Position numbers and translations under genes: made by a program
The notes under the pieces: model-generated
Told to the model about the DNA's origin: nothing
Database searches by the model: none
What the model saw: only the letters and a program-made list of their open reading frames with translations
Shown: one piece after another, positions 7,137-59,900 of the stretch
Numbering within the stretch: the stretch's first letter is position 1
How the letters are laid out: every line of letters begins with the position of its first letter
Assembly (NCBI GenBank): GCA_041659765.1
Contig: JBAZXR010000001.1
Coordinates: 595,338-659,337 of the forward strand
Source of the DNA: Patescibacteria group bacterium
GTDB lineage: Bacteria > Patescibacteriota > Patescibacteriia > UBA9934
Length of the DNA: 64,000 nt
Direction: 5' to 3'

Positions 7137-7142
7137 AGTTTC

Positions 7143-8688: not shown

Positions 8689-8740
8689 CATTTGACCTCC
8701 TTGATCTCGCGGCGAAAAGGTACCATACTCTTCCCAATCT

Positions 8741-11359: not shown

Positions 11360-11372
11360 GGTACTCACCGAT

Positions 11373-30310: not shown

Positions 30311-31071
30311 AAACCATTCTTTTTATCATCCTGCTCTCTAGCCTGCTTTTGTACAAGTTGCCACACCTTTTCACACCCCCTATGAATCAAAGAAATTGCG
30401 TCGCTCAGGTCCTTGGAGTCACCTTTCTCGTCTCTGCCATATAGATATTTCCTATCTTGCACTGCCCAGGCATCACCCAAAACCGTTCTAAGTTGAATTT
30501 CACAATGCAAATCACGCGCGATTCGGTCGTATCTCATTGTCTTGGTTACAGTAAAATGGATTGCGTCATAAAACGGACTTGATCGTCTATCCAGTGTAGC
30601 AGTGTCAGTTTTATTGTTAGTCAATCCTAAAGGAGGTTGATTCCTCATTGGAGTCTTAGTGTCGAATACACCATGTTCATCTTTCGATGTTTTTACACAC
30701 TTACCCTCAAGGCGATATGCCTTCAATTCATTGTCTAATCGGTCAGCAAATTTCCAGAGATCGTCTGCACAATTCAACGTAACCCTTACCCCTGCTATGT
30801 CTTTAAAAGAAAATAGACTTTTATACTTTTTCTTCCCAGAGTTTTTATTCCCATCATTATAATTCTCTAAAATCTTACCGATGTCTTTTATATTCTTTCT
30901 AGCGCCGATTGTCTCCACATCGATTCCAGCCTCCTCACACTCCTCACAGATCTGGTTTACAAACCGTAGAATATTTCTTTGCAACTTTAAATACACAGGA
31001 GCCCAAACCACATATTCCTCTCTAATCTTATCCTCAGCCTTCATAAAACCCGCTTGGGTCAATCGCTCCAA
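30307..31071 (-). CDS. RelA/SpoT-domain nucleotidyltransferase (small alarmone synthetase-like; possible toxSAS)
   Basis: FKDIAGVRVTLNCADDL and HCEIQLRTVLGDAWAVQDRKYLYG match the (p)ppGpp-synthetase fold motifs (D-x-A-G-x-R ... EIQ(I/L)RT). 254 aa. Overlaps the 3' end of the hsdM-S gene by 13 nt. Confidence 0.7.
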   Translation of the reverse strand: MERLTQAGFMKAEDKIREEYVVWAPVYLKLQRNILRFVNQICEECEEAGIDVETIGARKNIKDIGKILENYNDGNKNSGKKKYKSLFSFKDIAGVRVTLNCADDLWKFADRLDNELKAYRLEGKCVKTSKDEHGVFDTKTPMRNQPPLGLTNNKTDTATLDRRSSPFYDAIHFTVTKTMRYDRIARDLHCEIQLRTVLGDAWAVQDRKYLYGRDEKGDSKDLSDAISLIHRGCEKVWQLVQKQAREQDDKKNGL

Positions 31072-33482
31072 AGCTTCGCGATCGTTTCTTTAGTTTTTTG
31101 CTCGTAAATCTCAATCAGTTTCTTGGCAGATTCCATGAGCACACGCTCAGCCTCGATTTTTTCCACTATTTGTTTTTGGATGACAAGAGGTGGAAGAGGG
31201 ATTATTACATTTCTAACGATCTCGGAATTAAGATTTCTAACTACCCCACCCGTAGCGGCGTTCTCGAATTGTTCCACCACAATATCTGAACTCAGAATGT
31301 AGTACAGAAAATCTTTTCCGATCTTCTTAGCGTCTTCGGTTAAGCGCAACCAACCGTCATGAATATATCCGTCAATTTTCATTATATATGGACGCCCAAA
31401 ACTCATTGAGTTTGAAAGTACAAAATCACCAACAACGACTTTACGAGATTTTTCTGCGCCCTCCTTTGTCACTCTCTCCGCCGTATGAGTAATATATTTA
31501 TCAGCATTTTTTGTATCCCCAATTTTTACCCAATTAAATCCATCTGAGCTCTCTGTTATAAACTTATCTATCGGGCGCGGCGATGCCCCTCTTTCGATTT
31601 TACAAACTTCGCTGATTTTTACCTTCTCCCACTCTAAACCGATGTCAATTTTTGGTTTCCAATTTTGAGCGATTTGTTTCGCGCCAGCTATGATACCTGC
31701 GTAGCCGCTCAACTCCGCCACGATTTGCTCTTGAAATTCGAGGGAAGGAAGAGGAATCTTGAATTTAGAATATTGAGATATCCAGTATCGCTTGTGCTCA
31801 CCGGGAGTAAACGGGATATTCTGCATTACGTAATAGACATAGCGTATGTTCGCCAACTCTTTTTTTGTGTGTAGTATCTTCATTGCGGAAGACTTCACCT
31901 TGAACGGAAAATCGACAAATTTAGTTGCGGTTGTAAAATCATCAAATATTATCACTGGCAACCCCTCACGAAAAATACCCGTCGTCTCGTTGGTGTGGCC
32001 CAATACAAACGTCTTCCCTGCAGTGAGAACGGGGGTCAGATATTCATCTTTATAATCAACGGATTCGACCAAATACTTAGTGGGCTGCTCGTAGTCCAGA
32101 ACCTCGCCCAATTCTACCATCGGCCATTTTACGTTCGAGTGATCCATAGCGACCCGATATCGATCCGCGGAGAGATTGTAATCATCATTCTTCGCTATGT
32201 CCGTTTTTTCTACATAAATAACGTGCGCATCTTGAGCTTTCTTTCCCTTGGTCCATTCTCTCAAGATATTGACGGATGCAGGTAGATCGTTCTTGCCGAT
32301 GGGTCTACGAGTAGCACCGAGGTCGAATCCATCGTTTTCTATCTTAATAAATACTATTTCATTGAGCGTTTTGGCCAAAGTCACGTCAAAGAAAAGGATG
32401 CTTGTTTTGACGCCGGCGTATGGATTAAATACACCACCGGGAAGACTCACGACAGCAAAAAGACCATCTTCTACCAGATTCTTTCTTAGTTGTTTATACG
32501 CGCTACCCGACTGAAAGATGACCCCTTCTGGCACAATCACGCCCGCCCGGCCGCCTGGTCGCAAGTGGCTCATGATGTAATCGACGAAAAGCACCTCCGC
32601 ACGGTTAGATTGAACTCCAAATTTAGTATGCGGCTTAATCCCGCCTTTTGGAGACATGAATGGTGGGTTAGCTAAGATCACATCGAACTTATCGTTCCAA
32701 CGCTCGTCGCTGGAAAGAGAGTCATACTGGAAAATCTTTGGATTCTTAAATTGGTGGAGGTATGTATTTACCTGGGCAATACGAACCATTCCAGGATCTA
32801 TATCGTAACCCTCAAAATTATTCATCAGCTTGCGCTTCTCGTCTGGAGTAAGCGGTTTCTCTTTCTTTTCTGGGTCATCCTTACCATCGTGTTGCTCTAA
32901 AATGTGCCTATACGAGCTCACCAAAAATCCACCCGTTCCACAGGCAGGATCGAGGACCTTATCATCTTTGGTTGGGTTAACTACATCTACAATGAAATCG
33001 ATAATGTGACGCGGCGTGCGAAACTGGCCGGCATCACCCTGGCTAGACATGATCGAAAGAAGGTATTCGTATGCGTTACCAAGTTCTTCGGAATGCGAAT
33101 AATCAAAATAGTTAATTTCATTCAAAAACAAACCGAGAACTTCAGGCGATCTGTATGGCAAAAAAGCGGACTTAAAGATTCCACGAAATAATTCTGGTAG
33201 CTGTTTCGCCTCAGAAAACTTCAGAAGCGCTTCAGAATAGAGATTCATGCGCTCCTGGTTGCCCATACGTTGATCCATGAGGCGCGTCCAAGCGTAACGC
33301 TCGAGCTCACCCACGAAGAAGGACGGATCTCCGCCAGCCTTAATAGCAGCCTGATCCATGTCATCCATGAACTTATAGATAAGTGCGTTGGTGATCTGGT
33401 CAATTTGAGATGTTGGATTTGGCACTACGCCTACCAAAACCTGGCGAGCAGCATCAATGTGGCGTTTTGTTTCGGTATTCAT
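31059..33482 (-). CDS. hsdM: type I restriction-modification fused methyltransferase-specificity protein (HsdM-HsdS fusion)
   Basis: N-terminal N6-adenine MTase (FRTPRHIIDFIVDVV...VLDPACGTGGFLV; ILANPPF) is followed by two target-recognition modules. Each module ends in an HsdS conserved spacer (IPLPSLEFQEQIVAELS and IIPLPPLVIQKQIVEKIEAE). 807 aa. Confidence 0.85.
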   Translation of the reverse strand: MNTETKRHIDAARQVLVGVVPNPTSQIDQITNALIYKFMDDMDQAAIKAGGDPSFFVGELERYAWTRLMDQRMGNQERMNLYSEALLKFSEAKQLPELFRGIFKSAFLPYRSPEVLGLFLNEINYFDYSHSEELGNAYEYLLSIMSSQGDAGQFRTPRHIIDFIVDVVNPTKDDKVLDPACGTGGFLVSSYRHILEQHDGKDDPEKKEKPLTPDEKRKLMNNFEGYDIDPGMVRIAQVNTYLHQFKNPKIFQYDSLSSDERWNDKFDVILANPPFMSPKGGIKPHTKFGVQSNRAEVLFVDYIMSHLRPGGRAGVIVPEGVIFQSGSAYKQLRKNLVEDGLFAVVSLPGGVFNPYAGVKTSILFFDVTLAKTLNEIVFIKIENDGFDLGATRRPIGKNDLPASVNILREWTKGKKAQDAHVIYVEKTDIAKNDDYNLSADRYRVAMDHSNVKWPMVELGEVLDYEQPTKYLVESVDYKDEYLTPVLTAGKTFVLGHTNETTGIFREGLPVIIFDDFTTATKFVDFPFKVKSSAMKILHTKKELANIRYVYYVMQNIPFTPGEHKRYWISQYSKFKIPLPSLEFQEQIVAELSGYAGIIAGAKQIAQNWKPKIDIGLEWEKVKISEVCKIERGASPRPIDKFITESSDGFNWVKIGDTKNADKYITHTAERVTKEGAEKSRKVVVGDFVLSNSMSFGRPYIMKIDGYIHDGWLRLTEDAKKIGKDFLYYILSSDIVVEQFENAATGGVVRNLNSEIVRNVIIPLPPLVIQKQIVEKIEAERVLMESAKKLIEIYEQKTKETIAKLWSD

Positions 33483-33484
33483 AC

Positions 33485-36052
33485 TTATCCTAAATTGGTT
33501 AGCTGATAAGCGTAGTCACGGACATATTGCGGAACTGTAGTTTTGAACCCGTTAAGTTTTTGATAGTCATCGAAATCAAATGAACCACGAACATTAAATT
33601 CGGCCGGCTTGTTCTGCTTTACAATGTCGCGAACCTCTTCGTCCACAATATACGCCTTAAAGAAGTTTTTGGTTGGTTGGTAGTGTTCCTGGTCTACTTC
33701 ATAAATATCCATGAACTTCTGCCACTCTGACTCCAGAACGTCATCCTTCATCTCGAATGTATCTTTTTCACCAAATGCTACCTGCAAAAACTCTCGAACG
33801 GTGATCCGGCGATCAACACCGAAAATTTTACGGATCTTATCAAGGTTAAGGAAGTATTTTGGCTTGTCGAAAATCTGCTTTTTCGCAAAATCCTCGGCGC
33901 CTTCGGTGTCGCCATTACTCCAGAGATTCTTAAGCGTTTCATTGCCTAGCACATCTTCCTCAACAGCACGCTTAAAACCTTCACGATCAATTCGCATGCC
34001 TTCCTCACCGACTGGAGTCTCCGAAATAGTGGCCAGCTCGTCAGAAGTGGCCAAATCCACGATCCCCTTAAATATCTTCTTGCCATTCTCATCTACAAAT
34101 TCTCCCTGCGCTAATTCCTTACCCGTTGCGGTCTTTTTCTCCTCTGCCTTCTTAACTACCGGAAGCTTGATCTTCTCGTCGTACTTGAATTCTTTTTCAA
34201 AATACTCGCACGTGGCAAAGAAATCGAAAAACTTAAACTTGTCTTTAGCTACCGCGATAACATCACTGTCTTTATAATCCTTATGTTCAAACAAATATGT
34301 TCTAGTTCCACGTCCCTTTATCTGAACAAAATCTGCCGGACTAAAAACCGGACGCATTAGACCAATGTTGAGAAGATCCTGACAGTCGTATCCCGTGGTC
34401 ATCATGCCGACAGTAACAACAACGCGTGTCTTGCCCGTATCATATCCCTCCGGCTCCTTTGCATGACCGCCGAGGCGGTTATTCGCAAAATTAATGGTCA
34501 TTTGTTGTGCATCTTGCACCTGAGAAGTAACCTGCATGGCAAAATCAGATTCTCCGTATTGTTTTGGCCACTTTTCAAACGCTAATCTATTGAGAATATT
34601 AGTGACTCGCGCTGCATGTTTCTGTGAGACACAAAAGACAATGGACTTGCCGAATAATTGAACGCCCAATTTTTCTGCCACTGGATCAAAGATGCCGTTA
34701 TCAACAAATGCCTTACACATGGCAATATTCGTTTCTTCGTTGAAAAACTTTCGCTCGTAGTGCTTTGCGCTATATGTCTCGTCGACCGTTTCTCCACTTT
34801 CAGCTGCAGTGTGAACGCTATACCCTTTTTCCGACAACAACTCAGTCGTGATTTCCGTTCTTGCGTCTACTATCACGGGATTAATCAAATACCCATCTTT
34901 TACACCAGACAACAAATCATATCTAAATGTAGGCTCGCCGGATTCGCAGCCGAAGGTCTTGTACGTGCTTAAAAGCACACGTCGCTCATATTCACGCTGA
35001 GTATCCGCGTCCTCAGCGTCTACGCCCTTTAAGTAGTCCTTCGGAGTCGCGGTTAAACCGAGCTTATAGCCAACAAAGTATTCGAATACTGCCCGACTAT
35101 TACCACCAATTGAACGGTGAGCTTCGTCAGAAATCACTAGCTCAAAATCTGTGGGTGAAAATTCTTTCTTATACCGATCACCTGCCATGAAAGATTGAAT
35201 GGTCGAAACCACTACACTCGCATTCTGCCAAGAATCACGGCTCTCTTTATAGATAACACTTCTAAAATCCTTTCCAAGATACTGAGAAAATGCCTTCTGC
35301 GCCTGGTCCTCAAGCTCGATTCTGTCCACTAAGAATAAAACACGACGAGCATTGCCAGATTTCAGGAAAAGCTTAATAACCGCCGCAGAAATAAGTGTCT
35401 TGCCGGTACCCGTCGCCATTTCAAACAAGAATCTTTGTTTTCCCTCCTTGGCTGACTCTTGCAACGCCTTGATTGCCTGTACTTGATACGGACGAAGCTG
35501 TTTAAGATTATTATTTCTCAAAAATTCGCTTCGCGTTTCCGCATCCTTAAATGCTGGATCCTTAAAAAATCCAGGCATCTGCGTATCTACTACATAGTTC
35601 CCATCAACTAACGTTTTTGCTAGTTCGTCAGGATTCGGGGTGTATTTCTCATATTGTGTAATGGAATCCTGAGTGGGAAAACGAGAAATAGTATCAGGAT
35701 TTCCTTGCTTTGTATCCCAAAAATAGTGAATATTCCCATTTGAAAGAATGATAAATCTCGCTCCAACATTCCGAGCATAATTCCTCGCCTGTTCTTTTGC
35801 TGACAAAGGATCAACAGACTCTTTTTTAGCCTCAACCACAACTAATGGCCTACCGTCTTTATCTAAAAGAAGAAAATCTATAAAACCATGAGCCTCATAC
35901 TCAAAATCATCGCCAAGATCAGCGTATTTCACGCCTGGCTCCAGCTGAATATTCGCCCTGCCCTTCTTCTTATCATCCTCAAACCGCCAGCCTGATTCTT
36001 CGAGGAGTTTGTTAATCTTTATTCTAGCCTTAGCCTCTTTTGCATTTGCCAT
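33485..36052 (-). CDS. hsdR: type I restriction enzyme R subunit (N-terminal PD-(D/E)XK nuclease + SF2 helicase)
   Basis: Nuclease motif GFIDFLLLDKDGRPLVVVEAKK. Helicase motifs ATGTGKT, VISDEAHRS and QIKGRGTR. The stop overlaps the hsdM-S start (ATGA). Confidence 0.85.
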   Translation of the reverse strand: MANAKEAKARIKINKLLEESGWRFEDDKKKGRANIQLEPGVKYADLGDDFEYEAHGFIDFLLLDKDGRPLVVVEAKKESVDPLSAKEQARNYARNVGARFIILSNGNIHYFWDTKQGNPDTISRFPTQDSITQYEKYTPNPDELAKTLVDGNYVVDTQMPGFFKDPAFKDAETRSEFLRNNNLKQLRPYQVQAIKALQESAKEGKQRFLFEMATGTGKTLISAAVIKLFLKSGNARRVLFLVDRIELEDQAQKAFSQYLGKDFRSVIYKESRDSWQNASVVVSTIQSFMAGDRYKKEFSPTDFELVISDEAHRSIGGNSRAVFEYFVGYKLGLTATPKDYLKGVDAEDADTQREYERRVLLSTYKTFGCESGEPTFRYDLLSGVKDGYLINPVIVDARTEITTELLSEKGYSVHTAAESGETVDETYSAKHYERKFFNEETNIAMCKAFVDNGIFDPVAEKLGVQLFGKSIVFCVSQKHAARVTNILNRLAFEKWPKQYGESDFAMQVTSQVQDAQQMTINFANNRLGGHAKEPEGYDTGKTRVVVTVGMMTTGYDCQDLLNIGLMRPVFSPADFVQIKGRGTRTYLFEHKDYKDSDVIAVAKDKFKFFDFFATCEYFEKEFKYDEKIKLPVVKKAEEKKTATGKELAQGEFVDENGKKIFKGIVDLATSDELATISETPVGEEGMRIDREGFKRAVEEDVLGNETLKNLWSNGDTEGAEDFAKKQIFDKPKYFLNLDKIRKIFGVDRRITVREFLQVAFGEKDTFEMKDDVLESEWQKFMDIYEVDQEHYQPTKNFFKAYIVDEEVRDIVKQNKPAEFNVRGSFDFDDYQKLNGFKTTVPQYVRDYAYQLTNLG

Positions 36053-36243
36053 AGTCCTGGAGATTCTATCACCGGTCTAAAAACCCCGCCACATCAAGTA
36101 AAGTCAGCTTGCCGACGAGTGCATGCCTTATGCGCAAAGTATCCCCTTCCCCCGAAGCCTATTATCAGCGAGTATAGGCATGGCGGATCGGGAGGTGGTC
36201 GAACCCGCGAAGTCAATTAATATTAACCCCAGTACACACACCT

Positions 36244-36453
36244 ATGACAGACATCAAAGGGAACCAGGACGGACCCGGCGGTCGAAACGAAACGTATAAA
36301 ATCGGTTCGCGCCGTGAAGTCCCCCGAGTGCAGGCAGTACGAGAGGTAAAGGCCGGAACACACGACGGAGCTCATGTGGTCAAAATCAATGGCCGGGAGT
36401 ACGTTCGTGACAATCCGGACAGCTCCAAGCGTGACAACGTCAACCAACGTTAA
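36244..36453 (+). CDS. small hypothetical protein (69 aa)
   Basis: Gly/Arg-rich N-terminus. A conserved-looking HVVKINGREYVRDNPDS core. Followed by a bidirectional terminator. Confidence 0.4.
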   Translation: MTDIKGNQDGPGGRNETYKIGSRREVPRVQAVREVKAGTHDGAHVVKINGREYVRDNPDSSKRDNVNQR

Positions 36454-36561
36454 GGTTAATGGAAAAGCTGCACGAGTAGATAGAGCCCGCTCGGAAGGAG
36501 TAAATGAGGCAGTTGTAATCTGAAAATGGCGCTCGAAAGGTAGCACCTTCCAAAGTCACAC

Positions 36562-36590
36562 AAAACCCCGTCGGCCAGGCGGGGTTTTGC
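36562..36590. terminator. bidirectional terminator
   Basis: AAAACCCCG-TCGGCCAGG-CGGGGTTTT. Confidence 0.6.
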
Positions 36591-36699
36591 TTACGCTCTC
36601 TCTTCATCTTCGCGGTTTTGAAGTCTTCGCCTCCCCTATAAAGGGACTGCTGCGGGTGCCCGCCGTAGTCAGTAAACCTATGGCTTTAAACATCTGCGC

Positions 36700-48870: not shown

Positions 48871-51177
48871 ATGTCCGACTTAGTTGATAAATTTTCTCCC
48901 CACTTAAACACCGCGCTCACCCGGGCGTTGACTTTGGTTCTCCAGGAAGGAAGCGAGTCGATTACGCCGGAACATTTGTTTTGGGCAATTGGAACGGAAG
49001 ATTCCTGTCTGGGCGCACAGCTCCTCAAAAAGTCAGGACTCGAGGCGGCTGCTTTTGAAGAACTCACCAAACCGGCCGGCCGTAGCTCAATGACTGACCC
49101 GAAAGCTCCAAAAACTAAACCCTTTCTTTCGGTCGACGCTAAGGCTGCCATGGAGAAGGCAATGCTCGCTGCCAACCTGCACGATCACCCGCTCGTGACA
49201 ACCGAGCATCTTTTATTTGGCATCCTCGCCCTCCGTCCGCTCGCGATCAGCGCCGTGTTCAAAAAAGCTGGTGTTGATGCCGAGAAAATACAGGAAGAAC
49301 TCACTCAAATTTTTAGGGAGACGCGCGCACCAGAACCACAGCCCGCCGAAGTTCGCCCGACCGGCGTGCGCGAAGTTAAGAAAGCGCCCGCTCAGCCGTG
49401 TATAAAGTGTGGACACGTTCACGATGAAGTAGCTGACGCCAACGAGCAATCCGCGCTCGAGTTTTTTAGTACTGAGTTAACGGGTGCCGATCACGTCAAA
49501 AAGATCGATGCCTTAATTGGTCGTAACATGGAGATCGATAGACTCGCGCGCATTCTTACGCGGAAAACAAAAAATAACCCGCTTCTCCTTGGTGCTCCGG
49601 GCGTAGGCAAAACGGCGATCGTCGAGGGTCTCGCCAAGAGAATTGTCGACGGTTCCGCTCCGGCCGGGCTCAAGGGAACAAAAATTTACATGCTCGATAT
49701 GTCCGCCATGCTGGCTGGCACTATGTATCGAGGTGATTTCGAGGAACGCTTGCACGATGTTATCGAGGATCTTAAGGAGGCAAAGAATGCTGTTTTATTT
49801 ATTGACGAAGTCCACACGCTCGTCGGCACTGGTTCTGGATCCGGCGCACTCGACGCGGCGAACATTATGAAGCCGTCCCTGGCCCGTGGCGAGATTCGCG
49901 TCATTGGGGCCACGACGCGCGAGGAGTACAAAAAACACATTGAAGATGACGGCGCGCTAGCGCGCCGTTTCGCCCCCGTTTCGGTTCGTGAACCATCTGC
50001 CGATGAGACCAAATCGATCTTGATCGGCCTGGCCCCCGCCTACGCCAAGCATCACGGTGTGACCTTTGCCAAAGAAGCCTTTGCGACAATTGTCGAAATT
50101 TCTGGCCGTTACTTCCCGCATAAAGCATTTCCAGACAAGGCTATCGACCTACTCGACGAAGTTGGCAGCGCCTGCCGGACAAAGAAACTCGACATCACCA
50201 CAGACGACGTGCGCCGTGTGGCCGCCACCGTAACCGGCGTTCCGCTCGAGAGGCTCGAAGCCAATGATAGTGACAAACTCAAAACGCTCAAATCTCGACT
50301 TGCCGACCGTGTCCTTGCTCAGACAGAAGCCGTCGAAGCCGTAGCATCAAGCATCATCCGCGCCAAACTCGGCTTTCACCGCGCCGAGAAACCGCTCGCC
50401 TCTTTTCTGTTCGTCGGTCCGTCCGGAGTTGGGAAGACAGAAATGGCCAAGGCCGTAGCAGCGGAAGTTTTTGAAGATGAGAAGGCTTTGATCCGGCTCG
50501 ACATGAGTGAATATGCGGAAAGTTTTAGCGCCAGCAAACTCATTGGTTCTCCCCCAGGCTACGTGGGTTACAAAGAGGTCGCTCGATTAACTGATGCGGT
50601 CAAAGCTCGCCCATACTCGGTCGTCTTGTTCGACGAACTTGAAAAAGCACACAAAGACGTTCATCACCTACTTCTCCAAATTCTCGACGAAGGAACCATT
50701 ACTGACGCGACTGGTACGGCCGTTAATTTCAGAAACACCGTCATCATCATGACTTCAAACGCCGGTCGAGAGTTGTTCGAGCGCGGTTCCCTTGGCTTCA
50801 CCGGTAAGGCGATTAAGGAGAAGATCGATATGCGCACGATTCTCGAAGACGAGTTTAAGGCCGAATTTTTGAACCGCATCGATCGCATTTGTTTGTTCGG
50901 TGCGTTAACACCCGCCGACATGGAAAAGATTGCCAAGCGCGAACTAAAAGAACTCGAACTTCGCCTCAAGAACCGTGGAATCTCGCTCAAAGCCGATGCT
51001 GCCGCTCTAACTCAACTCGCGAAGTCCGTGAACCCCAAACTCGGTGCCCGGGATGTCCGCCGCGTCATTGCCGAAGCCATCGAACGACCGCTGGCAGACA
51101 AGGTACTAAATAATCTTGGAAAGAAAGCAAAAAACTATCGAGTCCGCGCCGGTAAGAAAGGGGTAGAGATCGCATAA
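48871..51177 (+). CDS. clpC: Clp/Hsp100 ATPase with two AAA+ modules (ClpC/ClpA-like)
   Basis: Clp-N repeat, NBD1 ([15 protein letters not shown]...VLFIDEVHTLVG), NBD2 (FVGPSGVGKTEMAKA...VVLFDELEKAH...RNTVIIMTSNAG). A short CIKCGH insert lies between the N-domain and NBD1. Confidence 0.85.
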   Translation: MSDLVDKFSPHLNTALTRALTLVLQEGSESITPEHLFWAIGTEDSCLGAQLLKKSGLEAAAFEELTKPAGRSSMTDPKAPKTKPFLSVDAKAAMEKAMLAANLHDHPLVTTEHLLFGILALRPLAISAVFKKAGVDAEKIQEELTQIFRETRAPEPQPAEVRPTGVREVKKAPAQPCIKCGHVHDEVADANEQSALEFFSTELTGADHVKKIDALIGRNMEIDRLARILTRKTKNNPLLLGAPGVGKTAIVEGLAKRIVDGSAPAGLKGTKIYMLDMSAMLAGTMYRGDFEERLHDVIEDLKEAKNAVLFIDEVHTLVGTGSGSGALDAANIMKPSLARGEIRVIGATTREEYKKHIEDDGALARRFAPVSVREPSADETKSILIGLAPAYAKHHGVTFAKEAFATIVEISGRYFPHKAFPDKAIDLLDEVGSACRTKKLDITTDDVRRVAATVTGVPLERLEANDSDKLKTLKSRLADRVLAQTEAVEAVASSIIRAKLGFHRAEKPLASFLFVGPSGVGKTEMAKAVAAEVFEDEKALIRLDMSEYAESFSASKLIGSPPGYVGYKEVARLTDAVKARPYSVVLFDELEKAHKDVHHLLLQILDEGTITDATGTAVNFRNTVIIMTSNAGRELFERGSLGFTGKAIKEKIDMRTILEDEFKAEFLNRIDRICLFGALTPADMEKIAKRELKELELRLKNRGISLKADAAALTQLAKSVNPKLGARDVRRVIAEAIERPLADKVLNNLGKKAKNYRVRAGKKGVEIA

Positions 51178-52160: not shown

Positions 52161-52161
52161 T

Positions 52162-53388
52162 ATGAACGAGCGTAACCAAATGATCGTCCGGCTAGTTATC
52201 CTAGGCGTAGTGACCCTCGCCCTGGGCGCCGGCATGTATTTCCTCTTTTTCCGCGCCAGACCGAGCGTAGTTCCGGTCACGCCGGGCACCGGAGTCACCA
52301 CGCCAGTAGGCGGCGGCCTGCCAGCTGCCGGCGGGGCTGCGCCGTTTGTTCCTGGCGCGGTTACCCAGCCAACTGGTCCCGGCGGTCTGCCTATTTCACC
52401 CGTGGCGAATGGCGGCCTGACCTCCACCACTACTTTGACGACGAGCGCCGTTAAATCGCCTACCATCACAGCTGCCGGCAAGGTGTCCTACTATGACCCG
52501 GGTGACGGCAAGTTTTATACGATCGATGAGAACGGCAATAACATCGCACTCTCTTCGGCCAAATTTCCAGAAGCCTCAAGCGTGGTCTTCGCCACCGGTG
52601 GCGCCACCGCAGCTATAGAATTTCCAGACGGCAGTAACGTAGTCTATAACTTTGACACCGGGGTCCAGTCTACTTTGCCCTCACACTGGGAAGATTTTTC
52701 CTTCTCTCAAGATGGCGGAACAATCGCCACTAAAAGCGTGGCCACTGATCCTTCCGCGCGGTCACTAGTTATATCATCGGCAGATGGCTCCTCGGCCACG
52801 CCGATTGCCGCGCTTGGCACGAACCAAGACAAAGTCAGCGTCGTGATGTCGCCCGACGGCAGTATTGTCGGCTTCTCAGCTACGGGCTCAGTAGCCACCA
52901 GCACGTTTGGTCAAAATAGCATTTATCTAATCGGCAAAGACGGCAAAGACGCTGGTGTGCTATTTGTTACCGGCTCCAACTTCACGCCAAAATGGTCACC
53001 GGACTCTGCTCATCTAATCTACTCGGTCGCGGATGCTGGTGAAGACTATAAAGCTTCGCTCTGGTACGCAGATAAAGACGGCGATCAGAAAACTGCTACC
53101 CGCAAACAAATTCCGCTCCAAACGCTGGCTACAAAATGCACCTTCGGCTCAAACACTCTGCTGTATTGCGCCGTGCCAACGGTCATGCCCCCGGGCGGTG
53201 GATCTTCAGCCTCCCTCATCACCTCTACGGACAACCTATACAAAGTCGACTTAAGCACATTAAAGGCTACGCTCGTAGCAAAACCGGCCGTTGACACTCA
53301 GATGTCTAACCTGTCCGTCTCCCCCGCCGGTGATCTACTGTTCTTTGCCGATAAATTTGGCCGATTAAATTCTATCCGGCTCAAATAA
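52162..53388 (+). CDS. membrane-anchored TolB-like beta-propeller (PD40-repeat) protein
   Basis: N-terminal TM, Gly/Pro/Thr linker, then repeated ...SPDGS.../...WSPDSAHLIY... propeller blades. Confidence 0.55.
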   Translation: MNERNQMIVRLVILGVVTLALGAGMYFLFFRARPSVVPVTPGTGVTTPVGGGLPAAGGAAPFVPGAVTQPTGPGGLPISPVANGGLTSTTTLTTSAVKSPTITAAGKVSYYDPGDGKFYTIDENGNNIALSSAKFPEASSVVFATGGATAAIEFPDGSNVVYNFDTGVQSTLPSHWEDFSFSQDGGTIATKSVATDPSARSLVISSADGSSATPIAALGTNQDKVSVVMSPDGSIVGFSATGSVATSTFGQNSIYLIGKDGKDAGVLFVTGSNFTPKWSPDSAHLIYSVADAGEDYKASLWYADKDGDQKTATRKQIPLQTLATKCTFGSNTLLYCAVPTVMPPGGGSSASLITSTDNLYKVDLSTLKATLVAKPAVDTQMSNLSVSPAGDLLFFADKFGRLNSIRLK

Positions 53389-53390
53389 CT

Positions 53391-54032
53391 ATGAAGTACT
53401 TCTGGCAATTCTTCGCCGTTATCATTGGACTCAGCGCCGTCATCTTTCTCTTTTTTGTACTGTCCGTAAAAACGAAGGATTCCATCACCTTTACCGGCCA
53501 AAGAATCGTCACCACGCCGGAAATAACTTCAGCTGATCCAAGCCGTGGTCCGGCAAACGCTCCGGTTACGCTTGTCATGTATGAAGATTTTCAGTGCTCA
53601 GCCTGTGCCGAACTCGAACCAGTGCTTAACACGCTCCTAGCAAACTACGGTACCGCTCTCCGCTTAGTCTGGAAGGATCTGCCAAATAACGGAGCGCATC
53701 CGGAAGCTATCCCAGCGGCCGTAGCTGCCCGCTGTGCTGGCAAGCAAAATAAATTCTGGGAATTCCATGATACGCTCATGGCTAACCAGCCCCTCTTGGG
53801 TGACGATCTCTACACCCGGATTGCCGGCGAACTAAAACTAAAAGCCAACGCCTTTAGCCAGTGCGTTAAAAACCAGGACACCCTACCACTAGTCGAGCGC
53901 GGTTATGACGAAGGCTTAGCCCTCCAGATCGCCTCTACGCCAACTATCTTCTTAAACGGCACACGGTACAGTGGGTCACTCTCCCTAAGCGAACTCACCC
54001 GCGCCATTGACGCCCTACTCCCAACCATGTGA
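53391..54032 (+). CDS. DsbA-family thiol:disulfide oxidoreductase, membrane-anchored
   Basis: N-terminal TM and a thioredoxin fold with CSAC (CxxC) in VTLVMYEDFQCSACAELEP. Confidence 0.8.
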   Translation: MKYFWQFFAVIIGLSAVIFLFFVLSVKTKDSITFTGQRIVTTPEITSADPSRGPANAPVTLVMYEDFQCSACAELEPVLNTLLANYGTALRLVWKDLPNNGAHPEAIPAAVAARCAGKQNKFWEFHDTLMANQPLLGDDLYTRIAGELKLKANAFSQCVKNQDTLPLVERGYDEGLALQIASTPTIFLNGTRYSGSLSLSELTRAIDALLPTM

Positions 54033-55387
54033 AGCACCTCTTCCTCGCCTTTCTCCTGGCTCTCACCCTCTCCCCCGCCCCAGCCCTGGCGGTCGGGCTA
54101 AATTGTGGTCAGCCAAACGCGCTCAATGCCACCTGTACGTGCATGTACCCAAATGGGTTTACCACCTTTGAGGCAAGCCAGGAAACAGTCTGTATCTCAA
54201 CCTGCAACGATACCTATCATGGCGACTCCTACCAATACGACTATTGCGATGAAACGGATCCTACTATTCAGCGCTCAAGCGGCAGGCTGAACCTGCATGA
54301 TGCTCCCGTAGCCTCAGATCTAGTAGCCCCTGATGCGCCGGTAACTCCAGGCATAGTGGAACAATTCGTGACTGCCCCAAGAGAAATAGTTATCCCTATT
54401 TTGAACGTGCCGATTCCTGGTCTTGATCTAGCGGGGTCAGTCACCAAATCTGATGGCACTGTCCGCTCTAACCTCATTGGTCTGTATGTCCAAGCCGCCT
54501 ACAGATTCCTACTAGTGGCCGGCACACTTATGGCCGTGACCATGCTCATGGTGGGCGGGCTGGAGTATGTGATGTCGGGTGGTAGCTCAAAGCGCGTAGA
54601 CAAGGCCAAGACCCGTATTAAAAACGCGGTCATTGGGCTAGTGCTTCTGTTTGCGGCATTTGATTTGGCGTTTCTGATTGATCCGGGAACTGTGCTCTTC
54701 AAATCGCTGGTGGTTGAATCTGTGCCTCAGATGGCCAGCGACGTGCGGTCCAGCTTCATGTTGGCCGAGTCTCAAGTTACAGGCGGTGCGTCGGCCAAGA
54801 GCACTGATTTAGAACGCTTCAAAGCCATGGGCACACCAACCAAAGACGAATTAGAAAAAGGCGTCCCATTCTTTATAACTTCTTATTACGCCCCAGCCTA
54901 CGGCGACAAGCAGGGCGATCTAAGTTTTGAATGCAACATTGCCATGCAGTGTTCCTGTCCAGATTCACCTATCAGTGGTCGAAAAAATGCTCCCCAGTCA
55001 GCTAAGACCTGCTACAGCAAAGGCTTGAATTACTACTGGGAACCATGTACTCCATTTGCTTCGACTGTTCCTTTCTGTAACAAAACAACAGCTTTCAAAG
55101 AAGGCCTCGTGACTACGCCGCCAGAAGGCCACCATACGGCGGCGGTCAGCAGGAACGTCCTGCCGCTCGGCACAGTCTTCAAAATATTCGGGGCGCCGGA
55201 CGCGGCTTCAAACAGTGCTATCTGGTACGCGGAAGACACCGGTGGAGAAATCAAAGGAAGACGTGTAGACTTGTTCATGGGTAGCGGCTCATCAGCGCTG
55301 GCTACGGCCAAAAGAAATATTGGCGAGGTGACGCTCCGCGTCTGCCCTGGCAACGATCCGGCCAAATGCCCAACAACATTGAACTAG
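54029..55387 (+). CDS. secreted/membrane protein with Cys-rich N-domain, two central TM helices and a C-terminal 3D (MltA/RlpA-like DPBB) domain
   Basis: Signal peptide MKHLFLAFLLALTLSPAPALA. The C-terminus FFITSYYAPAYG...AAVSRNVLPLGTVFKIF...GEIKGRRVDLFMGS fits the 3D-domain pattern. Confidence 0.55.
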   Translation: MKHLFLAFLLALTLSPAPALAVGLNCGQPNALNATCTCMYPNGFTTFEASQETVCISTCNDTYHGDSYQYDYCDETDPTIQRSSGRLNLHDAPVASDLVAPDAPVTPGIVEQFVTAPREIVIPILNVPIPGLDLAGSVTKSDGTVRSNLIGLYVQAAYRFLLVAGTLMAVTMLMVGGLEYVMSGGSSKRVDKAKTRIKNAVIGLVLLFAAFDLAFLIDPGTVLFKSLVVESVPQMASDVRSSFMLAESQVTGGASAKSTDLERFKAMGTPTKDELEKGVPFFITSYYAPAYGDKQGDLSFECNIAMQCSCPDSPISGRKNAPQSAKTCYSKGLNYYWEPCTPFASTVPFCNKTTAFKEGLVTTPPEGHHTAAVSRNVLPLGTVFKIFGAPDAASNSAIWYAEDTGGEIKGRRVDLFMGSGSSALATAKRNIGEVTLRVCPGNDPAKCPTTLN

Positions 55388-55390
55388 CAT

Positions 55391-56662
55391 ATGTTTGTCT
55401 GCTCGCACTGCGACGCCCAGGTCCTTAAGTGGTCTGGGCGATGTATAGAATGTGGAAAATGGGGAACGTTGACCGAGGAGGACGGCCACGCGCCGTCTTC
55501 TTTATCTCAACAAAAATTGTCCTCTAAACCGGCGCCCGTTTTAAAGTTGGGCGAAGCATCCGCCACGGTAACTACACCTATCCCCACAGGTCTTTCCGAG
55601 CTTGATCGAGTTCTGGGCGGAGGCATCGTGCCCGGATCAGTCACCTTACTTGCTGGCGAACCCGGAATCGGCAAGTCGACAATCGTTGCACAAATCGCCG
55701 GCTTCCAGAGCGCGTACTATGCGTCCGGCGAAGAGAGCGAAGGCCAAGTTCGCCTGCGGTTTGAACGCCTCGGCATTAACCCGTCGACTATTTTGTTTTC
55801 GAACGCTGTCGACGTTGGCGCGATCATTGCCGCGGCGAAAGAAGCTAAGCCGTCTATTGTCATTGTCGATTCTATTCAAACGATGATGGTGGCGGAGGCT
55901 GACGCATTTCCAGGGACGCCGACCGCGGTGCGTGCGGCCACGACCGAGCTGATTAGTTTTGCAAAATCCACCAACACGCCTGTTTTAATCATCGGCCAAG
56001 TAACTAAAGAAGGAACCGTGGCCGGTCCAAAGACACTCGAACATCTAGTCGACACCTTGCTCACCCTCGAAGGCGACCCGGAATCGACCTATCGCATCCT
56101 TCGAGCGAACAAACATCGTTTTGGCAGTACGGAAGAAATAGGCGTTTTTGAAATGACAGAAAAAGGATTAATCGCAGTCGAGAATCCCTCGGCACGGTTC
56201 CTCAAGGAGCGGGTACCGGGCCCAGGCTCCGTGGTCACCTGCATCATGGAGGGCAGTCGACCGTTCCTAGTAGAAATCCAGGCGCTCGTCGATAAGTCTT
56301 TCTTCCCAAACCCGGTTCGACGAACCAGCGGCTATGACGCGTCTAGGCTTCAGATGGTCCTCGCGATTGTTTCCAAACGTGCTGGCATCAAGGTGTATGA
56401 CCAGGACGTATTCGTAAATGTTGTCGGTGGAATCAAGATCGATGAACACGCCGCGGACCTTGCCGTGGCAGCCGCCATCATCTCCGCCATCAATGACAAA
56501 ACCTTCCCCGCTGACACCATCATTGTGGGCGAACTAGGCCTGGGAGGCGAAGTGCGCTCCGTCCCCTTCCTCGAACGTCGGCTCAAAGAAGCCGAACGCC
56601 TCGGCATGGCTGCCTCGCTGACACCGAAGAATACTAAACACATCCGAGAGCTTGCTCGATAG
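55391..56662 (+). CDS. radA: DNA repair protein RadA/Sms
   Basis: Zinc finger CSHCDAQVLKWSGRCIECGKWG, Walker A GEPGIGKST, KNRFG motif, Lon-like C-terminal domain. Confidence 0.92.
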   Translation: MFVCSHCDAQVLKWSGRCIECGKWGTLTEEDGHAPSSLSQQKLSSKPAPVLKLGEASATVTTPIPTGLSELDRVLGGGIVPGSVTLLAGEPGIGKSTIVAQIAGFQSAYYASGEESEGQVRLRFERLGINPSTILFSNAVDVGAIIAAAKEAKPSIVIVDSIQTMMVAEADAFPGTPTAVRAATTELISFAKSTNTPVLIIGQVTKEGTVAGPKTLEHLVDTLLTLEGDPESTYRILRANKHRFGSTEEIGVFEMTEKGLIAVENPSARFLKERVPGPGSVVTCIMEGSRPFLVEIQALVDKSFFPNPVRRTSGYDASRLQMVLAIVSKRAGIKVYDQDVFVNVVGGIKIDEHAADLAVAAAIISAINDKTFPADTIIVGELGLGGEVRSVPFLERRLKEAERLGMAASLTPKNTKHIRELAR

Positions 56663-56668
56663 TATTTT

Positions 56669-56712
56669 CAGTCCTTGCGAGACCGGCTGTAATCAGCCGT
56701 GTCGAAGCAATC
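56669..56712. repeat. Family-C hairpin repeat (copy C1)
   Basis: CAGTCCTTGCGAGACCGGCTGTAATCAGCCGTGTCGAAGCAATC. Confidence 0.7.
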
Positions 56713-56715
56713 TCA

Positions 56716-57015
56716 ATGACATCTATGGAAGAGCGAAACTACTACGTGTATTTCATGACGAATCCTAATAATTCCGTCATCTATACAGGAGTTACGAATG
56801 ATATCTCTCGTCGAGTGCAGGAGCATAAGGAGAAGTATGTCGAAGGATTCACGAAGAGATACAACTGCACCAAACTTGTTTACGTTGAGGTGTTTTCGAC
56901 TGCATACGATGCCATTTCTCGCGAAAAACAGATCAAGGGCGGATCGAGGAATAAAAAGATGCTTCTTATTGCGCAGGAGAACCCAACGTGGCGAGATATT
57001 TCTGAGGAGCTCTAA
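56716..57015 (+). CDS. GIY-YIG nuclease superfamily protein (UPF0213/YhbQ-like, 99 aa)
   Basis: YYVYFMTNPNNSVIYTGVTNDISRRVQEHK...LVYVEVF...REKQIKGGSRNKK. Flanked on both sides by family-C repeats. Confidence 0.8.
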   Translation: MTSMEERNYYVYFMTNPNNSVIYTGVTNDISRRVQEHKEKYVEGFTKRYNCTKLVYVEVFSTAYDAISREKQIKGGSRNKKMLLIAQENPTWRDISEEL

Positions 57016-57022
57016 CTCCTTC

Positions 57023-57126
57023 AGTCTTTGCGAGACCAGACGTAATCGTCTGTGTCGAAGCAATCCCAATGCTATCTTTTTCGAGGTTGCTTCGAGTTGC
57101 CGTCAAACGGCACTCTCGCAAAGACC
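57023..57126. repeat. Two adjacent family-C hairpin repeats in opposite orientation (C2 direct, C3 inverted)
   Basis: CAGTCTTTGCGAGACCAGACGTAATCGTCTGTGTCGAAGCAATC, then ~20 nt, then TTGCTTCGAGTTGCCGTCAAACGGCACTCTCGCAAAGAC. Confidence 0.7.
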
Positions 57127-57184: not shown

Positions 57185-58189
57185 TTGCCTATGGATCCGA
57201 ATGTCTTGTGGGGCATAGCAATTATTTGCGGCATCGTAGGTGCCATTCTTTTGTATCAGGGGAAATCGGGAGGATCTGGCAGTGTGAAGAAGTCGAGCAA
57301 ACCAAGCGCGTTTTCGACCGATCTCATCGACCAAGCCAAAAAAGGCAAACTTGATCCTTTTTCTGATCGCGAAGGCGAGATTGAGCGAACAATTCATATT
57401 CTTTTGCGTCGAAGTAAGAATAATCCCCTTCTAATCGGCGAGCCTGGAGTTGGCAAGACGGCGATCGTGCATGGACTCGCAGACAGAATCGCGAAAGGCG
57501 ATGTTCCAGCTTCGCTCAAAGACAAATCGCTTATTGCGATCAACCTAGCTTCCCTCTTTGGGGAGACGAAGTTCCGCGGAGAACTCGAGAAACGGGTCAG
57601 CGACTTTTTGAAAGACCTCGAAGGCCAGTCTCGAGAAACTATTTTGTTTATTGATGAAGTGCACATGATTGTTCAAGGCAGTGGCAGTGAAGGTTCACTA
57701 AATGTTACCGATTTGTTCAAGCCCGCCCTCGCGCGTGGCGATCTGCACATCATTGGCGCGACGACATGGGATGAATACGCGAAATACATCAAGACCGACG
57801 CGGCCCTCGATAGACGGTTCCAACCAGTACTCGTCGACGAGCCAGAGCCGGAGCAGGCGGTGCGGATGCTCAAAACACTCAGACCCGAATACGAAGCCTT
57901 TCACAAAGTAACTATTCCAGACGACGTGCTCAAAGAGGCGGTTCGACTATCTGACAAGTACATAAGAGGACGTTTCCTTCCGGACAAGGCGATCGATTTA
58001 ATCGACGAAGCCTCAGCCAAAGTATCAATTGAGTTCGAGGACAAACAACACGGCAAACATCTCGGGATTGTCCACGGTGCAGCCAAACAAACCAAACACC
58101 CCACAGTCACAAAAGACGACGTCGAAGACGTAGTAAACCAGTGGCGGGAACACATGGACGCGCAAAAATTACGACAAACCAATAAATAA
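57185..58189 (+). CDS. membrane-anchored single-module AAA+ protein homologous to Clp/Hsp100 NBD1
   Basis: N-terminal TM ([17 protein letters not shown]) replaces the Clp-N domain. Then [50 protein letters not shown]...[11 protein letters not shown]...[12 protein letters not shown]...ALDRRFQPV, which is colinear with NBD1 of the clpC-like gene at 48871. Confidence 0.7.
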
Positions 58190-58190
58190 T

Positions 58191-59900
58191 ATGAAAACAA
58201 CTTCATCAACCGCAGTACAAACAACAACAGCTACCCTCGTCGGAATTGCCATCATGGCCACCGGATTACTCGCGGCCGCAGCCGGGTTTGTCGTCGCGGC
58301 AAGTAATACAGGGCCGGTTCTCAACATTAAGGCAACGCCTCTACCTGGCGCACACGGAACCGTACAGGGCGCTCAACGAGAACCCATGCTCGGCTTCACG
58401 CTCGAGGCGAAAAATAAGGCTATCCTCATCGAATCGCTCACCTTTAATGTCCTGGCGGACAGCGACGGGAACTTCAAGGAAATTCAAAACGATCTCTCCG
58501 CCAGTGATCTCCTCCTGTCGTGCATGCTGATCAACAAGCGAACCGGGGCTGCAGTAGCGAGCCCGGTTTCTGTAACCAACGGGAACATGATCACATTTGA
58601 AGATAAGTTTACCCTTACTGCAAACTCAATCACCCCTTTCACCATTCTCTGCGACCATGCAAATACACTCATCACTAATCCGTACATCATGGGCGTTGAG
58701 CTGACCGGATATCCAGGGTATGTCGTGGCGACGGTCGCGGCTACCGGAAACAATTTGCCGGACAACCGTATCAATGTAGGAACTATCACGGATGCTGGAG
58801 TGAACGTAGCACTCACCACCTCGGTAACGATTCGTTCACGCGGCATGCTCCAGGTTTCATTAAGCCCCATCGCCCCAAGCAGCGACCTCACCATCAAAAA
58901 TAGCTCCGTCAAAGCAGCAGCATTTAAATTCACCGCGGCAGGTGAAGCTTACACAATCCAAAAACTCACCATTCAAAATATAGGCGATGACGCAGCGGTG
59001 AAAACAATCAAAATCACCTATAAGAACGCCTCTGGAGCCACAATTACAAACACCTCGACCCTTTCGAACCATTTTGCACAGTTCTCTGGGATTGATATTG
59101 CAGTGCCGACTGGCGCAGCGAACGCTGCAACGGTTGAAGTAACTGTAGATACAGCCGATATCAGCGCTACGGGCTCCGGCTCGTCCGGACAGACCTTTAG
59201 TGAAGCAATCGCCTTCTTGCCGGGCGGACTCTTTAAGGCCGTAGGCAACACCTCAGGCTCCGTTATCACCGAAAGTGAAATGGGCTACGGTTATCAGGGC
59301 GGAACCTTTACCCTCCGTGAAACTCGCCCGACCATTACCCTCCATTCAGCAAGCCCAACCGGTCCAGCTGTACCAGGTCGCAACGAGGTCTTACGATTCA
59401 ACGTAGCTGCTGATCCAGCCGAAGATCTGAGCATGTCCCAAATAACCTTCAAAGTTAACGCAACGTCCGTTGACTCGCCGTGGGCATCATGCGGTTCTTC
59501 AACAGTTAGCGGACTAGGCGATGTCACCAAATGGGAACTTAAAGACCTCACAACCGGTGAAGTGCTAACCAATAACAATTCTTGGATAATCATGAATGCG
59601 GATGGCGGCCAGTGTGGTCCGACTGATCGTGTGCAATCCGTGATCGCCTACGCACTCGCAAACCTGGTACATGGCACCATCTTCGCAGGAACAACTCACA
59701 CGCTCTCACTTATTGTAGATTCAACCGGCGCAAGCCAAAGTCAGGACGATCAAATTCAAGTTGAAATAACAAGTGAGCCAACACATGAGTTTCCACTTCT
59801 TCATAGCATCCAGTGGCGCGAAGGAGTTAATGGACCAGATCTCATAAACGGTAGTTTTATTAAGAACCTCCCAATTCGTGGCTTTACGCTCCAGTTCTAA
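58191..59900 (+). CDS. large Thr/Ser/Ala-rich cell-surface protein (569 aa), N-terminal signal anchor
   Basis: Starts 2 nt after the stop of the AAA gene. N-terminal hydrophobic segment. Predicted beta-rich extracellular repeats. No family recognised. Confidence 0.55.
   Translation: MKTTSSTAVQTTTATLVGIAIMATGLLAAAAGFVVAASNTGPVLNIKATPLPGAHGTVQGAQREPMLGFTLEAKNKAILIESLTFNVLADSDGNFKEIQNDLSASDLLLSCMLINKRTGAAVASPVSVTNGNMITFEDKFTLTANSITPFTILCDHANTLITNPYIMGVELTGYPGYVVATVAATGNNLPDNRINVGTITDAGVNVALTTSVTIRSRGMLQVSLSPIAPSSDLTIKNSSVKAAAFKFTAAGEAYTIQKLTIQNIGDDAAVKTIKITYKNASGATITNTSTLSNHFAQFSGIDIAVPTGAANAATVEVTVDTADISATGSGSSGQTFSEAIAFLPGGLFKAVGNTSGSVITESEMGYGYQGGTFTLRETRPTITLHSASPTGPAVPGRNEVLRFNVAADPAEDLSMSQITFKVNATSVDSPWASCGSSTVSGLGDVTKWELKDLTTGEVLTNNNSWIIMNADGGQCGPTDRVQSVIAYALANLVHGTIFAGTTHTLSLIVDSTGASQSQDDQIQVEITSEPTHEFPLLHSIQWREGVNGPDLINGSFIKNLPIRGFTLQF

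Follow-up and report, generated by a model that had tools for sequence, protein, structure and literature searches.

A conserved membrane-anchored, single-ring Clp-type ATPase of Patescibacteria and its linkage to surface-type proteins with a Thr-rich N-terminal anchor

The stretch of DNA analysed here (the window, 64,000 nucleotides of contig JBAZXR010000001.1 from a Patescibacteria group bacterium) encodes a short ATPase of the Clp/Hsp100 type, composed of one transmembrane (TM) helix and the first nucleotide-binding domain (NBD1) of these proteins, directly followed by a 569-amino-acid (aa) surface-type protein. Across related loci, genes of this ATPase family are found beside genes for proteins that begin with the same N-terminal module, referred to here as the TKT anchor. 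The ATPase and its TKT-anchored partners suggest, on sequence evidence, a dedicated and so far undescribed motor-client system. The favoured reading, drawn by analogy with known membrane-bound AAA+ machines, is that the ATPase acts as a dedicated dislocase or remodeller pulling on TKT anchors, for which a probability of about 0.45 is given. Neither a TM-anchored Clp protein consisting of NBD1 alone nor a TKT-type anchor was found to be described in the literature searched.

The ATPase gene and its parts are as follows (residues are numbered from the first codon of the open reading frame, ORF; AF2 denotes AlphaFold2 and pLDDT its predicted local distance difference test score).

57185..58189, + strand: membrane-anchored single-ring Clp/Hsp100 NBD1 ATPase gene (ORF list, Pfam, NCBIfam, AF2, Foldseek)
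57197..57265, + strand: TM helix, residues 5-27 (AF2 helix; mean Kyte-Doolittle value of 2.1 over 19 aa in 78 members)
57266..57310, + strand: flexible basic Gly/Ser/Lys linker from the TM helix to NBD1, residues 28-42 (low pLDDT, alignment)
57311..57847, + strand: large (alpha/beta) subdomain of NBD1, residues 43-221 (motifs, invariant columns in 78 homologues)
57437-57460, + strand: Walker A, GEPGVGKT, residues 85-92 (read from the sequence)
57569-57580, + strand: pore loop, KFRG, residues 129-132 (read from the sequence)
57641-57658, + strand: Walker B, ILFIDE, residues 153-158 (read from the sequence)
57755-57766, + strand: sensor-1, GATT, residues 191-194 (read from the sequence)
57812-57817, + strand: Arg fingers, R210/R211 (read from the sequence)
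57848..58186, + strand: small (lid) subdomain of NBD1 and family-specific tail, residues 222-334 (AAA_lid_9, tail alignments, AF2 helices 267-333)

The ORF opens with TTG at 57185 and encodes 334 aa. The true start is probably the ATG at 57191, six bases downstream, because homologues begin there (MDPNVLW...); translation from this codon gives 332 aa. An earlier note, made from the letters of the window, described the protein as an NBD1 core with a single TM helix in place of the Clp-N domain and lacking the second nucleotide-binding domain (NBD2) and the ClpP-binding loop, and this description holds. Pfam assigns AAA to residues 82-194 and AAA_lid_9 to residues 222-289, with no match to Clp_N, AAA_2 or ClpB_D2-small; the M-domain is also absent. 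In NCBIfam, residues 42-287 align to positions 158-403 of the 853 positions of the ClpB model with 340 bits against a cut-off of 1232, and the ClpA, ClpV, ClpK and ClpG models give similar scores. Because the profile alignment spans only positions 158-403 of ClpB, the protein comprises a complete NBD1 and nothing else of Clp/Hsp100. All hallmarks of the AAA+ superfamily (Walker A and B, sensor-1, Arg finger, and an alpha/beta domain with a helical lid) are present, and the two tandem AAA+ modules that define the ClpB (TIGR03346), ClpA (TIGR02639) and ClpC equivalogs are not found. The M-domain of ClpB/C is replaced by a short loop of about 20 aa (H..LG.VHAAAK), which is followed by a V..D[IV]..VV[DN]QW helix. 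The chain ends after the lid; Pfam and NCBIfam give no Peptidase_M41 match, FtsH models score weakly or not at all, and the classical-clade AAA models (CDC48, CdvC) reach about 16-22 bits.

The AF2 model (pLDDT 88.5) consists of the helix 5-27, a low-confidence linker (blocks with pLDDT of 68 and 56, residues 29-31 below 50) and a compact NBD1. Its best Foldseek matches are the NBD1 domains of ClpC1, ClpC, ClpB and ClpA, with 42-48% identity. The earlier note had named as its refuting condition a mis-called start that hides a normal Clp-N domain, and this possibility is excluded: a stop interrupts the frame upstream of the ATPase, a 99-aa GIY-YIG gene (56716..57015) lies together with repeats in the preceding 470 nt, which leaves no space for such a domain, and the homologues are of equal length. 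The window also carries, as the earlier note had pointed out, a full two-module gene, a paralogue used for comparison that lies outside the system described here:

48871..51177, + strand: resident full-length ClpC-like ATPase, 768 aa (Clp_N, AAA, AAA_lid_9, AAA_2, ClpB_D2-small)

The NBD1 of the short ATPase is 35% identical to that of the resident ClpC-like protein, against 50-56% to ClpB/ClpC proteins of unrelated phyla. Since it is closer to foreign NBD1 domains than to the resident one, a recent duplication of the resident clpC is ruled out. A role in defence was likewise discarded, the sole PADLOC match being a generic AAA similarity to TRIP13 (26 bits).

The homologue search covered 5.8 billion proteins and returned at least 120 clusters; the family figures rest on the best 120 matches. 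These measure 288-353 aa (nearly all 310-345) and share 49-91% identity with the query along almost all of its length. Their named sources are Candidatus Uhrbacteria or 'Patescibacteria group', many instances sit on long contigs, and the database labels read 'AAA family ATPase' or, wrongly, ClpA or ClpC. Alignments of 22 and 78 members were made. Walker A, Walker B, sensor-1, the aromatic residue of the pore loop and the Arg fingers are invariant across the 78 homologues, in agreement with the claim that the ATPase core is kept. Aligned members share the hydrophobic N-terminal segment, the basic Gly/Ser/Lys linker (K/R-rich and variable in length), the invariant catalytic residues and a family-specific C-terminus, which in most of them ends in HSKEE.KRDAR and in the window ATPase does not. 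Judged by these alignments, the short ATPase is a conserved family and not a one-off accident.

This conservation also bears on the most dismissive reading, according to which the gene is a degenerate, functionless fragment of clpB or clpC with a fortuitous hydrophobic N-terminus. The protein does cover only the NBD1 of what is normally a two-ring protein. Against decay stand more than 120 clusters of 320-340 aa in which the TM helix and a family-specific tail are conserved and the catalytic residues invariant, the confident AF2 model and the many instances on long contigs, and the pseudogene reading, effectively refuted by family conservation, keeps a negligible probability.

The orientation of the ATPase in the membrane can be read from the charges around its helix. 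The 2-5 residues that precede it are mostly acidic. Across the 78 members, the net charge averages -0.6 before the helix and +3.3 in the 15 residues after it, and the C-terminal flank is the more positive one in 95% of them. By the positive-inside rule, these values support an N-out/C-in anchor with the ATPase domain in the cytoplasm, where ATP use requires it to be. The topology check proposed in the earlier note thus comes out with the ATPase facing the cytoplasm.

The partner gene in the window has the following parts.

58191..59900, + strand: 569-aa anchored surface-type protein gene (ORF list, relatives, AF2)
58191..58304, + strand: TKT-anchor module, residues 1-38, with the Thr-rich tail MKTTSSTAVQTTTAT and the Ala/Gly-rich hydrophobic helix LVGIAIMATGLLAAAAGFVVAA (alignment of 16 anchors; hidden Markov model, HMM, E=1e-10)
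58317..59897, + strand: ectodomain, residues 43-569, with three beta-sandwich domains at about 43-200, 212-365 and 369-569 (DSSP on the AF2 model)

The two genes are immediately adjacent, as the earlier note had claimed; the gap after the TAA stop of the ATPase is 1 nt and not the 2 nt given there. No terminator-like site lies between them, and the pair is very probably co-transcribed in the window. This arrangement is not universal, since in many other loci the partner lies on the opposite strand. The 569-aa protein contains 21% Thr+Ser and four Cys residues. It matches no Pfam or NCBIfam family, including SLH or other S-layer (surface-layer) domains, and has 772 representative relatives at E<=1e-3 in a full-library HMM search; the shortest have about 100 aa and the longest about 2,070 aa, with most at 350-1,400 aa. 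Its AF2 model has a pLDDT of 87.3, with residues 1-38 below 50 and predicted as unstructured or anchor. The Cys434/Cys475 pair is invariant. Foldseek searches of the PDB with this model give generic Ig-like similarity only (TM-score 0.1-0.2), to integrin alpha leg domains, large adhesins, Gram-positive pilins and MSCRAMMs. The predicted combination of an export or anchor signal with extracellular beta-sandwich repeats, as in surface adhesins, is found in this protein. Because an N-terminal anchor is followed by three beta-sandwich domains, its description as a Thr/Ser-rich, anchored extracytoplasmic protein of surface or adhesin type is well supported by the predicted structure, and a more specific role in an S-layer may be supposed.

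The anchor module recurs in other partners and, in an alignment of 16 anchors, takes the form M..T(K/R)T(K/S)T.(K/R)T.V(G/A)(V/I)A(L/I)......AAAA(G)F. Among 50 anchors, tail length up to the hydrophobic helix varies from 11 to 25 aa around a median of 17 aa; the tails have 38% Thr+Ser, a net charge of +3.6 and only 7 acidic residues out of 829, while the flank after the helix carries +0.8. Because of this difference (+3.6 before the helix, +0.8 after it), the anchor is assigned the orientation in which the tail is cytoplasmic and the remainder outside. With the ATPase domain C-in and the anchor tail N-in, tail and ring would lie on the same side of the membrane. An HMM trained on the neighbours of the ATPase finds the 569-aa protein as its sole match in the 64-kb window, and nothing further in the roughly 273 kb made up of the window and the flanks of the candidate phyla radiation (CPR) loci; the control, 1.07 Mb of ClpB-containing loci, yields only one weak match (E=0.64). 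The other exported proteins of the window carry ordinary signal peptides. Of the 151 proteins formed by the 150 best-listed relatives of the ectodomain and P0122, 42 match the anchor HMM at E<=1; a few further relatives show the motif by eye, and the rest have Sec-type or lipoprotein signals. Because the same 569-type ectodomain also occurs behind Sec or lipoprotein signals, ectodomain and anchor are, on this sequence evidence, separable modules.

The linkage between ATPase and anchor was assessed in 21 distinct loci, including the window (WIN). A scan of metagenome contigs with the family-specific tail alignment gave only 15 loci. A scan of genome contigs with the patterns [IL]GxPGVGKTA and R[YF]LPDKA[IF]D returned 80 loci, all of them ordinary Clp genes of other phyla because both patterns are common to all ClpB/ClpC proteins, and these were reused as the negative control. 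In 20 of the 21 loci, an anchor-type gene is found no more than two genes away from the ATPase; the remaining locus, L091, breaks off at the stop codon of the ATPase. The ATPases of the linked loci are about 50-60% identical to one another. The upstream fragment in L103 reads ...VVDQWIIHSKEEKKRDARVDH*. At least four unrelated ectodomains stand behind the anchor module. The 569-type is found in WIN, L004, L102, L001, L087, L096, L097 (two copies), L098, L100, L103, L104 and L107 (three copies), a type of 594-693 aa containing CARDB in L005 and L099, a Cys-rich type of about 220 aa in L089 and L095, and anchored proteins of about 100 aa with PGY[GT] repeats in L001, L003, L006, L088, L096 and L097. 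The earlier expectation of a conserved gene pair is thus borne out for the anchor module, whereas the 569-aa family as such is not the conserved partner.

Gene order and orientation vary as well. The partner lies downstream on the same strand in WIN and L098, upstream on the same strand in L005 and L099, divergently in L001, L087 and L092, and convergently in L096, L097 and L100. The remaining neighbours differ from locus to locus (relA/parAB, pyrG, rpmA, radA/GIY-YIG, glycosyltransferases). Because the anchor HMM had been trained on ATPase neighbours, the linkage was also examined in reverse, from the ectodomain side. Six anchor proteins were chosen by ectodomain similarity, and the ATPase is an immediate or near neighbour in all four informative cases (P0122, P0144, P0176, P0260); the contigs of P0152 and P0195 are short, as is that of P0139 (L108), the control with a Sec signal. 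Taken together, the gene neighbourhoods make the linkage of the ATPase to anchored proteins well supported, and the feature that the linked partners share is, by their sequences, only the cytoplasmic basic Thr-rich tail with the Ala-rich TM helix.

In several loci (L097, L107), two or three anchor paralogues follow one another. L107 (2786-7429) contains one ATPase gene followed by three tandem TKT-anchor paralogues of about 400 aa (409, 402 and 400 aa), a sequence pattern that indicates local expansion and diversification of putative client genes. In the closest sequenced relative (L102, 7787-9419), the partner gene is intact (572 aa) and a further copy lies behind it, split by the gene caller into overlapping ORFs of 183 and 374 aa (P0124), which suggests a duplicated and then frameshifted paralogue.

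In the favoured reading, the 334-aa protein would be an active, ring-forming AAA+ translocase derived from a ClpB/ClpC-type NBD1. AF2 predicted a monomer only, and the hexamer is proposed from the pore loop and the conserved trans-acting Arg fingers, which make sense only in an oligomer. Six N-terminal TM helices and linkers of about 15 aa would tether the ring to the cytoplasmic face of the membrane. The N-domains of ClpA/B/C sit on the entry face of the NBD1 ring. Because the N-terminus of NBD1 lies on the substrate-entry face in Clp/Hsp100 rings, the pore entrance would be directed towards the bilayer, in the geometry of FtsH and Msp1/ATAD1. The clients would be the envelope proteins encoded beside the ATPase, with their N-in/C-out anchor, and the client in the window would be the 569-aa protein with its three beta-sandwich domains. 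The two may thus relate as chaperone and substrate. The ring would grip the Thr/Lys-rich cytoplasmic tail with its aromatic pore loops and pull on the anchor helix. In their dimensions, a 17-residue tail and a tether of about 15 residues would allow the tail to reach the pore. For FtsH, the tail required is about 20 aa long, and the preference of ClpB for basic and aromatic peptides fits a Lys-rich, acid-free anchor tail. Such pulling might extract the clients or turn them over, control their quality ahead of export, or clear or release the anchor once the ectodomain has been cleaved off.

Several points weigh against this reading. Full retro-translocation of a folded, probably disulfide-bonded ectodomain of 530 aa is implausible, and the pulling model consequently needs an additional assumption; the likelier actions would be on pre-export precursors, on cleaved anchor remnants, or as a tug that triggers release. 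The ATPase has neither a protease domain nor a ClpP-docking loop. The window's own anchor tail is T-rich and only weakly basic, with one Lys. The small residues that follow the anchor TM helix make cleavage by signal peptidase possible, to judge from the sequence. Finally, the linkage enrichment is partly circular in view of how the anchor HMM was trained, and the independent reverse test comprises four informative cases only.

A different function for the same components is suggested by two further gene families that accompany the ATPase in some loci. The first encodes a CPR-specific polytopic protein of 630-715 aa that is predicted to cross the membrane 13-14 times; its GFGFDPFxHR loop is invariant and its soluble C-terminal domain (..LxNQMxSAAA..PTGGxLY) conserved. 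Its gene overlaps or abuts the ATPase gene in L001, L003, L088, L096 and L097 and lies 3.2 kb away in L006. The second encodes small proteins of about 60-116 aa, in which a TKT-type anchor is followed by PGYG, PGYT or PGGYV repeats; their genes usually adjoin the polytopic gene.

L001: polytopic gene 6963-8873; small PGY-repeat anchored gene 8887-9225
L003: polytopic gene 6306-8399; small PGY-repeat anchored gene 8396-8596
L006: polytopic gene 10226-12373, - strand; small PGY-repeat anchored gene 5636-5977
L088: polytopic gene 4956-6980; small PGY-repeat anchored gene 6889-7170
L096: polytopic gene 5237-7129, - strand; small PGY-repeat anchored gene 4954-5253, - strand
L097: polytopic gene 5240-7147, - strand; small PGY-repeat anchored gene 4938-5234, - strand

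The polytopic family has no match in Pfam, NCBIfam or the PDB sequences, and its 18 relatives are all labelled 'hypothetical'. Searches of Pfam, NCBIfam, PADLOC and the PDB sequences gave no meaningful match for the 569-aa, the polytopic or the small anchored proteins. In L091 (6940-7161, - strand), a 73-aa fragment that matches the polytopic HMM adjoins the ATPase. The genes past it are unrelated, and the fragment may stem from a disruption of the polytopic gene.

With these proteins in view, the ATPase may instead power a dedicated system for the biogenesis, sorting or assembly of TKT-anchored envelope proteins, in which the TKT anchor would be the sorting signal and the ATPase would work with the polytopic protein, as platform or processing enzyme, and with the small PGY-repeat anchored proteins. 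The parallel would then be with systems composed of an ATPase, a platform and a pilin, or with sortase/exosortase systems, and not with a turnover dislocase. The presence of the polytopic gene beside or near the ATPase in six loci, of the small PGY[GT] proteins in the same six, and of two or three anchor paralogues in a row in L097 and L107 speaks for such a system, and an ATPase with a polytopic protein and several N-anchored substrates does resemble known assembly systems. Set against this, both additional genes are absent from the 64-kb window, where an HMM search finds no polytopic homologue, and from several other loci; the polytopic family matches no recognisable catalytic family; and a Clp-type pore with its entry face at the membrane would thread chains into the cytoplasm and not outward. 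A role in biogenesis is considered clearly less probable than not. The bolder proposal that the ATPase, the 13-14-TM protein and the module of TKT tail and Ala-rich TM helix form an unrecognised, CPR-specific sorting or envelope-assembly system, in which the N-terminal module would be a dedicated sorting signal read by a membrane-tethered Clp-type motor, is speculative and rather unlikely. If true, it would amount to an N-terminal counterpart of the sortase/exosortase signal systems, or to a new machine for assembling surface layers or filaments.

The specificity of the relationship can also be doubted altogether. The ATPase could be a general membrane-associated unfoldase or holdase for quality control, a minimal ClpB- or FtsH-like helper, its linkage to the anchored proteins being operon convenience or inherited synteny. 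Its Clp NBD1 core is generic, with no obvious domain for substrate recognition; CPR genomes are reduced and may need compact chaperones; and housekeeping neighbours recur, namely pyrG (L001, L005, L088, L099) and rpmA/L27 (L001, L088, L089, L095). However, the linkage outlasts changes of order and strand, replacement of the ectodomain and a divergence of about 50%, while the other neighbours change. The partners share exactly the part that would face the ATPase, the cytoplasmic tail and the TM helix, and in the DNA examined no anchor motif was detected except near the ATPase. A general helper appears improbable, and pulling on TKT anchors by a dedicated ATPase remains the favoured reading.

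Upstream of the ATPase, at 51198-55387, lies a conserved cluster with genes for two unknown proteins of 320 and 408 aa, for a DsbA-like thioredoxin (53391..54032) and for a protein of 452 aa that carries T4SS_pilin and 3D domains (54029..55387); it is followed by radA (55391..56662). A link between the ATPase and this cluster was considered and rejected, since the two are neighbours only in the closest relatives (L004, L102), where the cluster is syntenic, and not elsewhere. On either side of the GIY-YIG gene, at 56667-56724 and 57020-57077, lie the copies of a 58-nt direct repeat, which are 83% identical. Within the repeat is a hairpin that shows compensatory changes: one copy reads CCGGCTG-TAAT-CAGCCGT and its counterpart CCAGACG-TAAT-CGTCTGT. 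An Rfam scan of this upstream repeat region gave no match. The same small GIY-YIG gene lies between radA and the ATPase in L004 and L102. The region may be a mobile cassette or a repeated RNA hairpin. Farther away, GC content drops to 41-45% in the stretch 30000-38000, compared with about 52% elsewhere. A type I restriction-modification system is encoded there, and the stretch is probably a horizontally acquired island.

31059..33482, - strand: fused HsdM+HsdS
33485..36052, - strand: HsdR

The Clp/Hsp100 motors are textbook examples of soluble double-ring machines. A conserved membrane-tethered form reduced to NBD1 would imply that a single Clp ring can persist as a stand-alone machine, and would give bacteria a structural counterpart of the eukaryotic Msp1/ATAD1. 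The surface of CPR bacteria is the interface of their presumed episymbiotic lifestyle and, to our knowledge, almost nothing is known about it experimentally. The linkage of the ATPase to a novel anchor motif on diverse surface proteins offers a testable lead on how this surface is built or renewed in the ultra-small CPR/Patescibacteria. The TKT-anchor motif alone could serve as a bioinformatic marker for listing candidate envelope proteins in CPR/Patescibacteria genomes.

Among known systems, the closest by descent are ClpB, ClpC and ClpA, whose NBD1 is homologous, with the same Walker A/B, pore-loop, sensor-1 and Arg-finger motifs and the same AAA_lid_9 lid. The short ATPase lacks the N-domain, the M-domain or coiled coil, NBD2 and the ClpP-binding loop, and has a TM helix in place of the N-domain. 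The ClpP-docking loop (IGF/IGL-type) of ClpA and ClpC lies in NBD2. ClpB, ClpC and ClpA form double rings, whereas a single ring is expected for the short ATPase, which scores far below all equivalog cut-offs. In architecture only, the short ATPase resembles the eukaryotic extractase Msp1/ATAD1, in which a single TM anchor at the N-terminus is likewise joined by a short linker to one AAA+ ring whose entry face is expected to point towards the membrane (general knowledge and PMC12793716). In both cases the clients or candidate clients are single-pass proteins with short cytosolic ends. However, Msp1 belongs to the classical meiotic/Msp1 clade whereas the NBD1 here is of the Clp/HCLR type, so that it is an analogue and not a strict homologue, and its clients are tail-anchored by a C-terminal TM helix, in contrast to the N-terminal anchors with large ectodomains found here. 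FtsH is also an N-terminally anchored AAA+ ring under the membrane that starts on short cytoplasmic tails (general knowledge; see also PMC7949044). Unlike the present ATPase, with its one TM helix and Clp-type domain, it has an M41 protease domain, two TM helices, a periplasmic domain and an FtsH-type AAA module. HSP101 of the Plasmodium PTEX complex provides a precedent for a Clp/Hsp100 ATPase that serves secreted or surface proteins at a membrane (general knowledge; see also PMC8016102). It is a full two-ring protein without a TM helix, whose exit face docks on EXP2 and which pushes proteins across a membrane, whereas pulling is suggested for the ATPase described here.

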